The position numbers and the translations under genes are program-made. Under the pieces are notes generated by a model, which saw only the letters and a list, made by a program, of their open reading frames with translations, was not told the origin of the DNA and ran no database searches. Shown here piece by piece: positions 34,854 to 45,768 of a stretch of 64,000 bases of DNA. Positions within the stretch are counted from its first letter, which is position 1. The number at the start of each line of letters is the position of its first letter. The stretch comes from an uncultured Acidobacteriota bacterium (lineage in GTDB: Bacteria > Acidobacteriota > Blastocatellia > RBC074): contig CAWCKY010000001.1 of assembly GCA_963796275.1 (NCBI GenBank), forward strand, positions 768,001-832,000, in the 5' to 3' direction.

Positions 34854-34926
34854 TGAGGGCGGAAGGGCTCGAACCTTCGACCCAGAGATTAAGAGTCTCT
34901 TGCTCTACCAACTGAGCTACGCCCCC
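34854..34926 (-). tRNA. tRNA-Lys(CTT), CCA not encoded
   Basis: GGGGGCGTAGCTCAGTTGGTAGAGCAAGAGACT-CTT-AATCTCTGGGTCGAAGGTTCGAGCCCTTCCGCCCTCA; canonical cloverleaf. Confidence 0.97.
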
Positions 34927-41722: not shown

Positions 41723-42952
41723 TCAGGGTTGCGGCCGGCCGTTATCGGCTTGCACCCGGATATAACTTAGCAGCAGGCTTAAGTTACTGAAGCGAGCGAA
41801 GAGAATCTCTCTATCTTTTCCGTTCAGGTTAAACACTATCGCCACATTCCTCAGTATCTCCGCCCCGGCGACCAGATTCTCGGGCGTAAAGGTACTCCTC
41901 ACTGCCGCCAGATCATTTTCCGCTTCCAGGCGCGCTGCCTTCGATCGGATTTCAGAAAGGCTCGGACGCAGTAAGCCCTGTGGATCGCTGACTGCCCGAG
42001 TATAGAAATCATCGATATCTTTGGCGGTGATCGGGACGAGTGGCTGGCGGTCCTGAGGATAAAGCAACGTCACCATCGCCCATACTATTCCGCCATTGAG
42101 ATAAACTTTTTTCCGGTTAATCAGGCCGGGCCTCTTTTCCAGTTCACGTTGCAGAGGCTCGCGAACAGACTTACCGCTCAATATTTGTGCTTGACTGGCG
42201 AATTTCTTGATATCAGCACCTGCACCTGCCTCTTTTTCTACTTCATCCGAGAAACCGATCGTCCCCTGAGGAATTCCGAATGTGAAGAACACATTTTCGG
42301 GTTTGCCTTTCGGTAGAATTCGAATCTGCTGATAGCCGCCTTTGATATTACCGCTGCCGACATCTACCAACACTGACATTCCCCGGTTATCGAACCAAGT
42401 CGCTCTGTCTTGATAACGCCGGGGGATCGTGCCAGCGATACTGAGGCTCGCTTCAGACTGCATGTCGAGTAAAGCTACATTCTTACCGGTTTTATTAGTT
42501 ATCGTTTTTGTAAGTTCTCCGGTGTTGTCCGCGATGAGATCGCTGCAAATGATAATATAAATCTGCTCTCTGAGAATTTGATGCTCTTGTTGCATCCGCT
42601 TGTAGAGCGTATCTACTAACTGAGAGATGTTGATGATAGCTTCATCGGTCAAATTCCCATCTTTGTATTGAGCCAGCTTGTTATTTATTACTTCAGTGGA
42701 GATTATTTTTACTCTACCGCTGGATTCGGAAATCTGGATAGCAATAGATTTAATACTTTTAGATCCTATCTCAATTCCGCCATGCAACTCACTTCGATTA
42801 TTTTGTTTCCGGTTAAGTGGGTGTCCTTTAGTAGTGAGTAGTAGATTGAGGCTCAGTGTTCCTATAGAAAGAGTAACAAAAAAAATAATGTGCAACTTCA
42901 GGGTCAGGAGATATGAAAACCGCTCTCTTAACCCAGTAACCCCTACGAGCAT
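41723..42952 (-). CDS. Membrane-anchored Ppx/GppA-like (ASKHA fold) hypothetical protein
   Basis: N-terminal TM; GGIEIGSKSIK and LVDVGSGNIKGG resemble the two ASKHA phosphate loops; AGGAG SD. Confidence 0.6.
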   Translation of the reverse strand: MLVGVTGLRERFSYLLTLKLHIIFFVTLSIGTLSLNLLLTTKGHPLNRKQNNRSELHGGIEIGSKSIKSIAIQISESSGRVKIISTEVINNKLAQYKDGNLTDEAIINISQLVDTLYKRMQQEHQILREQIYIIICSDLIADNTGELTKTITNKTGKNVALLDMQSEASLSIAGTIPRRYQDRATWFDNRGMSVLVDVGSGNIKGGYQQIRILPKGKPENVFFTFGIPQGTIGFSDEVEKEAGAGADIKKFASQAQILSGKSVREPLQRELEKRPGLINRKKVYLNGGIVWAMVTLLYPQDRQPLVPITAKDIDDFYTRAVSDPQGLLRPSLSEIRSKAARLEAENDLAAVRSTFTPENLVAGAEILRNVAIVFNLNGKDREILFARFSNLSLLLSYIRVQADNGRPQP

Positions 42953-43116
42953 CTCACAATTCTCCTTTTTAGCTTACGACCGGCATGCTCAAAGTGGGCG
43001 TCGTTGTTGAATATTTATGAGGGCATCCGTGTTTCTAAGTCTTTATCTACGACTAATACTACAGCAGCCTGATCCGGGACGCAAGATATTCAATAATCGC
43101 TTCAAAAACTTTTATA

Positions 43117-43145
43117 TTGACTGTGTTTCTTGCTCGTGTTAAATT
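43117..43145 (+). promoter_or_regulatory. sigma70 promoter with extended -10
   Basis: TTGACT (43117-22), 17 bp spacer with TG at 43137-38, TAAATT (43140-45); AT-rich tract upstream. Confidence 0.7.
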
Positions 43146-43210
43146 CAAAATTCTCGTTGAATAAGACGAGAGGAATGTGTGAGCAGCTAAAAAGCAACTA
43201 AAAAAAAGTT

Positions 43211-43324
43211 ATGGTAATCATTGGTAGATACAATTATATGAATGATCTCCAATTCGCACAGGATCCGCGCACGCGGGTCTGGATGGGTGCAGGATACCGG
43301 AAGAGATTACTTGTCTACCCTTAG
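43211..43324 (+). CDS. Putative attenuator leader peptide MVIIGRYNYMNDLQFAQDPRTRVWMGAGYRKRLLVYP*
   Basis: 37-codon ORF between promoter and terminator; its codons 28-30 (GGATACCGG) are the antiterminator strand. SD is weak. Confidence 0.5.
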   Translation: MVIIGRYNYMNDLQFAQDPRTRVWMGAGYRKRLLVYP

Positions 43325-43347
43325 ATAATCTCCAAATCGGGTTAAAT

Positions 43348-43397
43348 AAACCCCGGCCGGTATCCAAAATAGGAATACCGGCCGGGGTTTTAGTTTT
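43348..43397 (+). terminator. Intrinsic terminator / attenuator
   Basis: Perfect 13-bp stem CCCCGGCCGGTAT (43351-63) / ATACCGGCCGGGG (43375-87) followed by TTTTAGTTTT. Confidence 0.85.
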
Positions 43398-43415
43398 CAG
43401 GTATCAGGGTATCGG

Positions 43416-43494
43416 GACGATGAAGCCAAAGCAATCGAGGCACGGCGAATAACAAATATAGCCGTAGTAGCTGGTGAGAGACCAGTCATCGTAT
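43416..43494 (+). ncRNA. Non-canonical tRNA-like element
   Basis: Acceptor ACGATG/CATCGT, D stem GCC/GGC, anticodon stem ACGGC/GCCGT with 14-nt loop, 4-nt variable region, T stem GCTGG/CCAGT with 7-nt loop TGAGAGA. Confidence 0.6.
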
Positions 43495-43504
43495 AACACC
43501 ACTT

Positions 43505-43647
43505 TCAGGATGCGTTGCCGTAGACTCGGCTGACATAGTTACACTAAAGCTGTTCCGGATGTGAAGGTACCGGTTTAGGTAGTTTCACATGGTGGCATTA
43601 GTGTGACCGTCGGTAGAATCCGTCAAGGCTCACTGGCGATGCCCTGA
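43505..43647 (+). ncRNA. Candidate rod-shaped structured RNA 1
   Basis: Nested helices TCAGG/CCTGA, GCGTTGCC/GGCGATGC, GTTACACTAA/TTAGTGTGAC, ATGTGAA/TTCACAT, TACC/GGTA. Confidence 0.55.
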
Positions 43648-43650
43648 GCG

Positions 43651-43713
43651 AATGTAGGGCAGGGTTTTATCCTGCCCTGTGAAGGGAAAGGCATTTAGAA
43701 ACTGCCCTACATT
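43651..43713. repeat. GTAG-type REP doublet
   Basis: AATGTAGGGCAG...CTGCCCTACATT terminal inverted repeat; internal GGGCAGG-GTTTTAT-CCTGCCC hairpin. Confidence 0.65.
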
Positions 43714-43746
43714 ATTGACATTCAGGTTCGAAACTTAAGTAAAATA

Positions 43747-43901
43747 TTTTCACAGGTCAGCCCGCGAAATGGGCGGAGGCATCTAGCACTGGGTATGCTC
43801 GTGATATAGCTTGGAGCCCATGAATATGGGCGACAAAGTTTGGGTAATGACAAGGGCTAAATCTCACCGCCCACTCCGTGGGCTGATATGGTTTGTGAAA
43901 A
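43747..43901 (+). ncRNA. Candidate rod-shaped structured RNA 2
   Basis: Nested helices TTTTCACA/TGTGAAAA, TCAGCCCGCG/CGTGGGCTGA, TGGGCGG/CCGCCCA, TAGC/GCTA and inner hairpin GCCCAT-GAAT-ATGGGC. Confidence 0.55.
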
Positions 43902-44285
43902 GCTGATTATCCGAAGATCAACAATGCTCACATCGCATGTGTGTACACCGACATCGGGCTAAGGAGCTGAATATAAGAAAGCGTCGGCAAGAAAGAGCTC
44001 ATAGTGCACCGTAGTATAACTTTGTAGGTATTTTTTTGTTATCGTCGAGGGTGCGCGGCGCATTCGAGAAGTGTGCATATGACAGTCGATTTTTATATGA
44101 AAGAATGACGGTTCGAAGAAGACCGGGAATATCGCGCAGCCATAGCACAACCTACCCAAATTAAAGCTGAGAAAATCAGTACCGCGAGCGGTGGCGAGCG
44201 TAGTTTCCAGAACTCAGAATATTCCAGAAACTAAGCTCGTTTCGTATGTTAAAGGTTTTACGATGACCGCTATGCCATACCCGAT

Positions 44286-45768
44286 TCACCATCCCAGCAC
44301 ACGATTTCCCGGGTCATTCCACCTGCTCAAGATCACTTTGTTATGCGTATAGAAGAGGAATCCTTCGGTGCCTTGAATATGCAGGTCGCCGAAGAATGAT
44401 TGATTCCAGCCGGTGAATGGAAAGATCGCCATTGGCGCGGGGACGCCTACATTCACACCAATCATCCCGCATTTGACATAACGGGCGAATGTGCGAGCCG
44501 AGCCACCGTCGCGCGTAAAGATTACGGCGCCGTTTCCGTAGGGCGAAGCGTTCGCGCGCGCGATCGCCTCGTGGATATCCGCGACGCGCATCACTGAAAG
44601 GACCGGTCCGAAAATTTCATCGGACGCAATGTGCATCTCCGATTCCACGCGATCAAAAATCGTCGGCCCCACAAAGAAACCTTCGCTGGATTGGGTCAAA
44701 GACGTGTTGCGGCCGTCAGTTGCCAGCCTTGCCCCTTCGTTCAACCCGGTATCGATATAGTTGCGGACCCGATCTCGGGCGGCGGGATCTATCACTGGTC
44801 CCATATCGACTGCGCCGCCATCATCGGTCGGTCCAACGCGCATCTTCCGCGCCGCGGCATCGAGGCTTTCGATCAATGCATCTCCCGCCTTGCCGACTGC
44901 GACGGCGACGCTGCCAGCCATGCAACGTTGCCCGCTGCATCCGAACGCCGCGCCTATGATCTGACTCGTCGCGGCATCCAGATACCGCATCAGGCATAAC
45001 CAGCATATAATTCTTCGCACCGCCGGCGGCCTGTACGCGCTTACCGTGCGCCGTCCCGGTTTCATAAATATATTTTGCTACCCCGGTCGAGCCGACGAAA
45101 CTGACGGCCGCAACATCGGGATGGGTGAGCAGGGCATCGACCGTTTCGCTGCCGCCATTCACAACGTTGAAGACGCCCTTTGGTAAGCCGGCGTCGGTGA
45201 GCAGTTCCGCCATCCGTAATGGGGTCAGCGGGACTTTCGGCGACGGTTTGAGGATGAAGGTGTTTCCGCAGACGATGGCGATAGGGAACATCCAAAGCGG
45301 GACCATGGCGGGAAAATTGAACGGCGTGATGCCCACGCAGACTCCCAATGGATGGCGCTGTACTTGTCCGTCGATTCCGCGCGCTATGTTGTCGAGAGTC
45401 TGTCCCATGAGTATAGACGGAGCGCTGCAGGCCAGTTCGACCATTTCTATTCCGCGCCGCACGTCTCCACGCGCTTCTTCGAGGGTCTTGCCGTGTTCGC
45501 GCGTGACCATGCGTGCTAGGGAATCGAAGTTTTCTTCGAGCAAGTGCGCGAAACGAAACATAATGCGCGCTCGCTCTACAACTGGCGTATCAGCCCAGGC
45601 TGAAAAAGCATTTTTGGCGGTTTGGACTGCTCGATCGACGGTTTGAGGGTCGCTGTCTGGGGTCTGCGCGATTACCTCTCCCCTGGATGGATTGTAGACT
45701 GGTGTGTAATGCGATGATGTGGCGGGTGTCAGATCGCCGCCGATGTAGTTGTGGCATATAGTGTTCAT
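44286..45768 (-). CDS. mmsA: CoA-acylating (methyl)malonate-semialdehyde dehydrogenase, split by a frameshift
   Basis: ITPFNFPAMVPLWM, SFVGST, GGAKN in one frame; GCSGQRCMA, EIFGPV, GVNVGVPAP in the other. Deleting base 44984 restores DADLDAA. Confidence 0.88.

Follow-up and report, generated by a model that had tools for sequence, protein, structure and literature searches.

A covarying tRNA-shaped RNA element behind a predicted transcription attenuator in one family of Acidobacteriota

The stretch of DNA analysed here, called the window throughout, comprises 64,000 nucleotides (nt) of the genome of an uncultured Acidobacteriota bacterium (GTDB lineage Blastocatellia, RBC074; assembly GCA_963796275.1, contig CAWCKY010000001.1, positions 768,001 to 832,000 of the forward strand). 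On its plus strand it carries a small element that has the shape of a tRNA and loops that are not those of a tRNA, placed right behind a small open reading frame (ORF) and a putative attenuator. The element is made up of the following parts, with stems given in base pairs (bp).

43416-43493, plus strand: the tRNA-shaped element, recognised by its fold, its homologs, their covariation and covariance-model searches
43417-43422 with 43487-43492, plus strand: closing stem, with a terminal mismatch of G43416 and A43493 (sequence and fold)
43423-43424, plus strand: linker AA, equivalent to tRNA positions 8-9, with A at position 8
43425-43441: D-like arm of 3 bp (GCC at 43425-27 with GGC at 43439-41) and an 11-nt loop without GG
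43442-43465: third (anticodon-like) arm of 5 bp (43442-46 with 43461-65) and an A-rich 14-nt loop (43447-60)
43466-43469, plus strand: linker AGTA (sequence)
43470-43486: T-like arm of 5 bp (43470-74 with 43482-86) and the 7-nt loop TGAGAGA
43499-43501, plus strand: CCA (sequence)

The first-pass annotation of this DNA had listed four arms in tRNA order and spacing, a T loop TGAGAGA, a D loop without GG, an A at position 8, a G-A mismatch at the end, an A-rich loop of 14 nt and a CCA at 43499-43501, and every one of these features is present in the sequence. The cloverleaf at 43416-43493 is both the minimum free energy (MFE) structure and the centroid in RNAfold (-24.9 kcal/mol). Shuffled controls, named at that time as a possible refutation, gave no equivalent folds, as 0 of 200 dinucleotide shuffles matched the energy of the element (shuffle mean -13.56, sd 2.37, z = -4.78). 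The element is present as a single copy in its own genome. Three features are private to this copy and not common to the homologs, namely the mismatch of G and A, the loop of 14 nt and the displacement of the CCA; the CCA looks accidental, and none is conserved among them.

When positions 43000-44300 were compared by BLAST with 40 related genomes, 12 members of the same family turned out to have the region 43414-43492, with identities of 72-84%, and a thirteenth genome (G008) gave a partial match in local BLAST; the similarity to these relatives stopped at about 43493. The same comparison found the element absent in all 16 genomes from other families of the class. For the counts across the family a covariance model (R1) was used as the search model. 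At E<=1e-5 it matched in 46 of 87 family genomes, distributed over 12 of 17 genera, and at E<=1e-3 in 51 of the 87, a count that includes weak matches to true tRNAs. The order of the window genome contains only this one family, and a search at the level of the order is therefore a search of the family. In a sample of the whole class R1 matched in 27 of 38 family genomes versus 1 of 112 genomes of nine other families, where the lone match was a tRNA inside a tRNA array, so that no true element was found in the 112 genomes of these sister families.

The copies covary extensively. The RNAalifold consensus derived from 14 copies (aligned with MAFFT) has a 9-bp closing stem, an invariant GCC/GGC D-like stem and a 5-bp T-like stem with a 7-nt loop, with compensatory changes in 8 of its 17 pairs. 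The wobble pairs UUGG/CCAG and GGUG/CAUC seen among relatives are compatible with the plus strand only. Among 30 copies aligned to the model, standard pairs occupy 97.6% of the cells and both sides have changed in 11 of the 17 pairs, the kind of compensation among homologs that the first-pass annotation had proposed to look for. None of 500 shuffles of these 30 copies attained the observed pairing or covariation score, and sliding the partners by 1-3 columns lowered the pairing to 25-49%. Since these copies were aligned to the model itself, the structure appears in a somewhat favourable light, and the independent MAFFT/RNAalifold result agrees with it in direction. Plain MFE folding recovered the closing stem and three hairpins in 31 of 39 distinct copies. 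By all these comparisons the element is an RNA domain under purifying selection, neither a chance fold nor a decaying pseudogene.

Two descriptions had been offered for it at first sight, a tRNA mimic and a decaying array tRNA. That of a non-decoding mimic under selection agrees well with stems that covary around an anticodon loop that varies freely. The second stands in its link to arrays, as there are relatives with tRNA arrays at the same position (see below), and falls in its claim of decay, since the D-like and T-like loops are near-invariant across 12 genera. For the family as a whole, a functionless relic, that is, a pseudo-tRNA left by a lost array and drifting to decay, appears very improbable: a drifting pseudogene would not be expected to acquire new loop sequences and then keep them nearly unchanged in 12 genera, nor to show family-wide the pairing and compensation just described. 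An origin in an array is plausible all the same, and for the window copy a relic is easier to accept. This copy has the weakest closing stem (6 uninterrupted pairs) and ends in a G-A mismatch, and having lost the genes found downstream in relatives it may be out of use.

Considering all homologs, the element is a structured plus strand RNA of about 78-100 nt. Three segments are near-invariant, namely GAAGCCAAAG followed by N-A-W-Y-CG-R-GGC (linker and D-like arm), AGUAG (linker and first base of the T stem) and GGUGAGAG-N-CC (T-like arm). The consensus loops of the family, UGAGAGW in the T-like arm and AAAGYAWUCGA, without GG, in the D-like arm, are near-invariant as well, as is the A at position 8. 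The architecture of a tRNA is kept in detail: the closing stem is stacked on a T-like arm of 5 bp whose loop has 7 nt, a linker of 2 nt leads to a D-like stem of 3 bp, a single purine precedes the third arm, and there is a "variable" linker of 4-6 nt. The third arm is always a hairpin, of 3 to more than 12 pairs with a loop of 4 to more than 18 nt, and has no common sequence; with neither length nor sequence fixed in this arm, the element cannot decode. The outer closing pair is normally G-C and the stem continues to 9 or more pairs. The median number of uninterrupted closing-stem pairs is 9, with 9 or more in 20 of 39 copies, and the window copy has the shortest and weakest closing stem of the set.

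A tRNA is characterised by the T loop UUCRANY, a GG in the D loop and U8. The element has the four-arm cloverleaf and the acceptor positions stacked on a 5-bp T stem, with a closing stem that runs longer, and it has neither a 7-nt anticodon loop with U33 nor the T-loop, D-loop and U8 consensus. ARAGORN, one of the checks suggested in the first pass, did not call it and found a single tRNA in the window, a tRNA-Lys at 34854-34926 on the minus strand; it made no call (0 of 11) in the homologous loci scanned either. The tRNA model of Rfam was silent over the element at its gathering score and at E<=10, and at gathering scores the tRNA-Lys was the only Rfam match in the whole window. We therefore give hardly any probability to a functional tRNA that decodes through an unusual anticodon loop, in spite of its cloverleaf order and spacing and of the U that is frequent at the discriminator-like position of the homologs. 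Lowering the Rfam 15 threshold to E<=10 over 42800-44400 produced 10 weak rows, mostly aligned to the terminator hairpin described below, and no riboswitch family. The only row touching the element, P15, lies on the opposite strand with 16.5 bits versus a cut-off of 70, and all these rows were taken as chance matches.

The descent of the element from a tRNA is well supported by its sequence relatives. All ten weak R1 matches that were examined (22-43 bits) are real tRNAs: four tRNA-Cys(GCA) (in genomes G000, G061, G020 and G062), two tRNA-Met, two tRNA-His, one tRNA-Gly and one array tRNA of genome G198, and that the other matches of R1 are all real tRNAs makes such a descent likely. The G198 array tRNA has the 5' half of the element in common (GACGAUG-AA-...-AAAGCGGUCG). 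This gene (L068:309-382, minus strand) has A at positions 8-9, scores 42.6 bits with the Rfam tRNA model and is not called by ARAGORN. Some array tRNAs have the T loops UGCGAGU or UGCAAGU, one letter off the UGAGAGU of the element; T loops beginning with UG sit in array tRNA-Phe and tRNA-Met genes at loci L141, L143 and L146. As for the specific ancestor, the tRNA-Cys of the window genome resembles the element in its acceptor pattern, in a GCCAA...GGC D arm and in the T stem, and in an arm-by-arm alignment it ranks first among the 47 tRNAs of the genome (13.2 versus 11.6 for the next). This makes tRNA-Cys only a lead, since, as will be seen, tRNAs of other types score equally high.

The DNA in front of the element holds a second conserved module, which, like the operon context, is not part of the first-pass annotation. 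It has these parts.

43117-43145, plus strand: promoter-like site, TTGACT, 17 nt, TAAATT, with TG (consensus scan only)
43211-43324, plus strand: small ORF of 37 codons, unannotated, with its stop codon at 43322-43324 (frame statistics)
43292-43300, plus strand: 5' strand of the antiterminator, GGATACCGG, complementary to CCGGTATCC (43357-43365) in the 5' arm of the terminator
43303-43333, plus strand: hairpin P2 of the antiterminator fold, GAGATTA / TAATCTC (sequence, fold, conserved in the alignment)
43348-43397, plus strand: intrinsic terminator, with a long hairpin rich in G+C and TTTTAGTTTT behind it (MFE structure of the complete stretch; compensatory changes)

Both alternative helices covary. 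The two strands of the antiterminator change together in relatives (GGATGCCGG/CCGGCATCC, GCTACCGG/CCGGTAGC, GGTACCGG/CCGGTACC and TTTACCGGT/ACCGGTAAT), and the terminator stem occurs in the compensatory variants CCCCGGCCGG, CCCCGACCGG and CCCCGCCCGG, each with a matching 3' arm. For the nascent RNA 43285-43368 the MFE structure is the antiterminator, a three-way junction of a helix and two hairpins (-28.3 kcal/mol), while the full stretch favours the terminator (-45.7 versus -33.1 kcal/mol with the antiterminator enforced). The last 11 codons of the small ORF, from the motif G-Y-R onward, overlap the antiterminator strand and P2, and the stop codon falls in the P2 loop. In relatives the small ORF mostly has 58-85 codons and a C-terminal G-Y-R-K-R motif, and the peptides are alike in little besides an N-terminal Asn, a central Trp and GYRKR. 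Across 35 loci the frame of GGA-TAC-CGG (Gly-Tyr-Arg) has a median of 71 open codons upstream, versus 25 and 9 in the other frames. An ATG at least 15 codons upstream of the motif was found in 33 of the 35 (in the remaining two the script had mislocated the motif), and in 26 of the 35 the distance from the beginning of the motif to the stop is exactly 10 codons.

At the level of sequence the upstream module thus corresponds to a ribosome-dependent transcription attenuator, with the regulation itself predicted. It resembles the leaders of the trp/his type and those that sense antibiotics in that the end of an ORF overlaps an antiterminator strand that competes with an intrinsic terminator. It differs from them in that the ORF is long and has no run of regulatory codons, and in that what follows is a tRNA-shaped RNA and not a coding gene. 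The same order of blocks, GGATACCGG, a hairpin, GGGTT and a terminator hairpin with a T run, precedes the element at every copy that lies in front of an exporter operon (see below), with a spacer between these blocks and the element of 14-140 nt in relatives and 20 nt in the window. A gap of 20 nt leaves little room for a separate promoter, and the element, which is no independent tRNA gene, would accordingly be made by read-through of the terminator. The site at 43117-43145 could start a transcript of the small ORF, the attenuator and the element, in a promoter scan that gave 4 sites versus 2.4 expected in shuffles. A semi-conserved motif, GCGTCCTCAGCC (TTCGTCCGTCAGTC in one genus), is found in the spacers of several relatives (e.g. 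L003, L008, L009, L012, L015 and L056-L063) and is absent from the 20-nt spacer of the window.

Downstream of the element the order in relatives is a raiA RNA (in some genera), a gene for a protein of 150 amino acids (aa) and an exporter gene of the MFS_3 family, and the distance from the element to the next start codon goes from about 40 to about 400 nt. The raiA RNA is the Rfam family RF03072 and scores 102-115 bits in the relatives, being present in 28 of 87 family genomes (loci L002, L005, L006, L014 and L074, for example at L006:1673-1918). In 9 of 9 genomes with both, raiA starts 15-21 nt after the end of the R1 match; at eight loci with stand-alone raiA genes neither a tRNA nor an element was found upstream. 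The literature describes the raiA class as well represented in Bacillota and Actinomycetota and discusses a possible connection of this RNA to the control of translation (PMC10861870). The gene upstream of the whole module varies by genus, being an aldo/keto reductase in most and others in genus g12, from which it follows that attenuator, element and exporter travel together as a module. At one locus (L058:3858-4930, plus strand) the element is followed not by the usual operon but by a DUF433/nucleotidyltransferase gene and a HepT-like gene, a toxin-antitoxin pair of the MNT/HEPN type.

The 150-aa protein provides the connection to tRNA arrays. The reference sequence (P0001, encoded at L004:860-1312, minus strand) is all-helical and has 1711 relatives, and the names given by the sources to those among the 120 listed are all "hypothetical protein". 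No Pfam family was found in it at E<=1. Its AlphaFold model (pLDDT 88.7) had no fold match, the best Foldseek hit having an E of 0.8, and the best VIA-align Z, 5.5 to saposin-like chains, is below the level that is meaningful for helical proteins. We collected 80 loci (L074-L153) that encode relatives of this protein, with titles naming Blastocatellia/Pyrinomonadaceae (Acidobacteriota) and filamentous cyanobacteria. The element is found at 11 of the 80. At these 11 no tRNA gene was found within 2.5 kb, and all of them have an MFS_3 gene behind the 150-aa gene, which is the case at 0 of the 69 others. At ten of the 20 non-cyanobacterial loci that lack the element, 6-14 tRNA genes of the same strand stand just upstream, and nine of these arrays comprise at least ten genes; a tRNA gene of any number is present at 15 of the 20. 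Three of the nine long arrays close with a tRNA-Cys, which again favours this tRNA as the ancestor. Same-strand tRNA genes stand beside the 150-aa gene also at 9 of 15 cyanobacterial loci. One array locus, L131, comes from a genome flagged as unpublished, and the presence of arrays is independent of it. The long tRNA arrays of Anabaena are described as silent until translation is inhibited and as located near RNA-processing genes (PMC8421152), and as repressed by TrcR (PMC10272220). Binding of the 150-aa protein to the element, as autoregulation by mimicry, was considered and lost weight, as the gene is absent from four element-bearing loci and from the window genome.

The reading that we prefer, at a probability of roughly 35%, is that the element acts in cis and that its tRNA shape offers a handle to machinery reading the L-shape of tRNA, most likely for processing of the RNase P or RNase Z type. 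Of the three roles named in the first pass for a mimic, processing signal, nuclease decoy and ligase substrate, this corresponds to the first. We arrive at it because the geometry of a tRNA is kept in detail, because the spacing to raiA is fixed and because the position of the element is equivalent to that of real tRNAs in related genomes. By analogy with trp-type attenuation, a ribosome arriving at the last codons of the small ORF would block the antiterminator and transcription would stop, and when translation is stalled or absent the antiterminator would form and the element would be transcribed together with what lies downstream. In relatives the read-through RNA would continue into the raiA RNA (in some genera), the 150-aa protein and the MFS_3 exporter, and cleavage of RNase P/RNase Z type would free the downstream raiA RNA or the mRNA from the leader, a job that would correspond to the one of the real tRNAs in the arrays at the same position.

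Several observations weigh against a processing handle. An RNA whose 5' end is buried is a poor substrate for RNase P, and in the element, with the geometry of the acceptor/T stack kept, leader and trailer nevertheless pair. The two positions past the 7 acceptor pairs are paired in 27 of 30 copies each, switching between A-U and G-C (we prefer these counts per pair to the count of uninterrupted pairs because bulges blur the latter); the same two positions can pair in 28 and 20 of the 47 real tRNA genes of the window genome. Generic processing enzymes do not require fixed D and T loops different from those of tRNA, which suggests a dedicated partner or ligand. Descent from one particular array tRNA finds no help in the 128 array tRNAs at 13 loci, among which no amino-acid type is prominent and genes for Asp, Pro and Gln score as high as those for Cys. 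The attenuator pattern CCCGNCCGGTATCC, searched with 1 mismatch, occurs at about the control level in 5 array-bearing genomes. The one soil metatranscriptome run with signal (9% of sampled words) gave a single contig of 200 nt, covering 43057-43248 and not reaching the element. Finally, one genus has a second type of copy, of 86 nt, located ~45 nt before the start codon of a protein with a BP74_N domain that is followed by a FecR/DUF6600 protein, and no attenuator stands in front of it, which is the pattern expected of a riboswitch-like regulator.

Such a regulator is a possible, tentative alternative: a former tRNA would have become a four-way-junction aptamer that senses a metabolite, an ion or a protein, or is bound by the latter, and tunes the genes downstream, namely the MFS_3 exporter operon and, in the one genus, the operon of BP74_N/FecR type. 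Near-invariant unpaired nucleotides in junctions and loops next to a hairpin of free length and a long closing stem are typical of aptamers, and the same motif stands before two unrelated sets of genes. At the second type of copy a GGAG follows the end of the closing stem after ~20 nt and the start codon follows it after 45 nt, and a downstream CGAUG could, on reading the sequence, pair with the 3' strand of the stem instead. The coupling already described between element and MFS_3 gene (11 of 11 versus 0 of 69) would also fit. A conserved structured domain is found in the leaders of two gene sets. No consistent expression platform is seen, given the variable distance to the start codon (about 40-400 nt) and a whole raiA RNA lying between in 9 genomes. 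The element is moreover positioned after the regulated terminator and not before it, no riboswitch family of Rfam matches it at E<=10, and an aptamer would have no evident need for the detailed geometry of a tRNA (the 7+5 stack, the linkers of 2 and 1 nt and the T-like loop of 7 nt).

One may also think of a trans-acting stable small RNA, freed from the read-through transcript under translational stress and acting as a tRNA decoy for ribosomes, for a tRNA-binding protein or for a tRNA-directed nuclease. All the conserved nucleotides persist in the window genome despite the absence of the downstream operon, the production would be tied to an attenuator that senses translation, and the linkage to raiA, an RNA discussed for the control of translation (PMC10861870), points in the same direction. 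We consider a decoy of this sort decidedly unlikely. It has no conserved 3' end, CCA or terminator of its own, its extended closing stem suggests that it stays embedded in a longer RNA, and the contig of the single RNA run ends at 43248, before the element. Nor does it have a candidate partner gene as a constant neighbour, for the 150-aa gene is absent at four loci with the element. A broader version, in which the terminal tRNA of a stress-induced array turned into a new class of regulatory RNA, a tRNA-derived sensor or decoy, made only when translation falters, that binds a ligand, a protein or the ribosome via its re-modelled elbow (the D-like and T-like loops) and so controls the exporter operon and the raiA RNA, seems to us unlikely as well, if less so than the decoy taken by itself.

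Known RNAs help to place the element. The closest are the array tRNAs, which share with it the place and the strand in front of the 150-aa gene, the cloverleaf geometry and, in part, T loops beginning with UG; the link to translational stress is published for arrays and for the element is suggested by its attenuator. Unlike them the element is a single unit without an anticodon loop, with fixed D and T loops that are not those of tRNA and a stem that goes past 7 pairs, and it is called neither by ARAGORN nor by the Rfam tRNA model. Processing signals in the shape of a tRNA also occur in longer transcripts, as in the mascRNA of MALAT1, in mitochondrial "tRNA punctuation" and in tRNA-mRNA co-transcripts such as the tufB operon. 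The element resembles these as a tRNA-shaped module with functional RNAs on either side (in 9 of 9 genomes raiA follows it at 15-21 nt), but its leader and trailer are paired, its loops are not tRNA-like, and its cleavage is a prediction. In its presumed way of working it comes nearest to an array tRNA or to a punctuation signal of tRNA-like shape, although it cannot be assigned to either class.

Two other classes of tRNA mimics were considered and set aside. The tmRNA, with its tRNA-Ala-like domain, mimics the acceptor and T arm without having an anticodon; the element differs in its full four-arm cloverleaf, in having no tag reading frame and in lacking a conserved CCA end, and no tmRNA was called in the window by ARAGORN or Rfam. 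The genes of bacterial Y RNAs (YrlA) adjoin rsr (Ro/TROVE). As in Y RNAs, there is a non-decoding RNA with a tRNA-like module and ends that form a long stem, and the difference lies in the arm that would bind Ro, which is not conserved in the element. The comparison with Y RNA models, which had been suggested at first, found no Y RNA family among the 10 sub-threshold Rfam rows at E<=10 (the set of bacterial Y RNA models in Rfam 15 being unchecked). TROVE (PF05731) was not found in the genome, which is 94.7% complete, by a search that was positive in 2 of 14 control genomes. The neighbours of the element are an aldo/keto reductase, a 409-aa ORF and pieces of an aldehyde dehydrogenase, with no rsr among them.

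Few non-decoding RNAs in the shape of a tRNA are known, among them tmRNA, the modules of Y RNAs, the tRNA-like ends of viruses and mascRNA, and all of them have been instructive on how the shape of tRNA is read in cells. The element appears to join these tRNA-derived, non-decoding RNAs as a real and unusual member, with its function proposed from sequence, and it represents a lineage-wide, strongly covarying example in soil Acidobacteriota. We found no description of it in Rfam 15 or in full-text searches of open-access and bioRxiv papers aimed at tRNA arrays, tRNA-like RNAs and raiA. Its setting links three things that are poorly understood: stress-induced tRNA arrays, the raiA RNA and an uncharacterised family of array-associated proteins. 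If it is a processing handle, it shows how a whole array may be reduced to one working "punctuation mark". Were it a sensor, it would be a tRNA on its way to becoming an aptamer and would document the evolution of an aptamer or riboregulator from tRNA, and a sensor or a decoy would give raiA RNA a functional neighbourhood that can be tested.

In the window genome the element is probably an orphan, the leftover of an arrangement seen elsewhere, because the downstream genes are missing. Eight queries with the 150-aa protein gave nothing below E = 0.1 in this genome, raiA was not found in it, and its best MFS_3 match is 28% identical and located elsewhere; with 94.7% of the genome at hand the absence of these genes is likely, not proven. 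Every conserved nucleotide is retained in this copy. The 790 nt after 43493 contain short repeats, followed by the aldehyde dehydrogenase pieces on the other strand, and one more feature.

43640-43670, plus strand: terminator-like hairpin with a T run (pattern scan only), ~150 nt after the element and not conserved in relatives

This hairpin is a possible end of the read-through transcript in the rearranged window copy. The repeats at 43713-43925 and 44173-44239 recur on several contigs of the same genome with 82-97% identity, and related genomes, among them G004 (flagged as unpublished), have many copies of the unit at 44173-44239, frequently arranged in inverted pairs. On the other side, the 409-aa ORF (41723-42952, minus strand) separates the gene of the aldo/keto reductase from the small ORF, a place at which relatives have no gene; no Pfam family was found in it, only a sub-threshold HEAT-repeat row. 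The aldehyde dehydrogenase (44286-45768, minus strand) is split in two overlapping ORFs, with 44821-45768 corresponding to Pfam positions 7-248 and 44286-45065 to positions 250-460, which may be due to a frameshift, a pseudogene or an assembly error.

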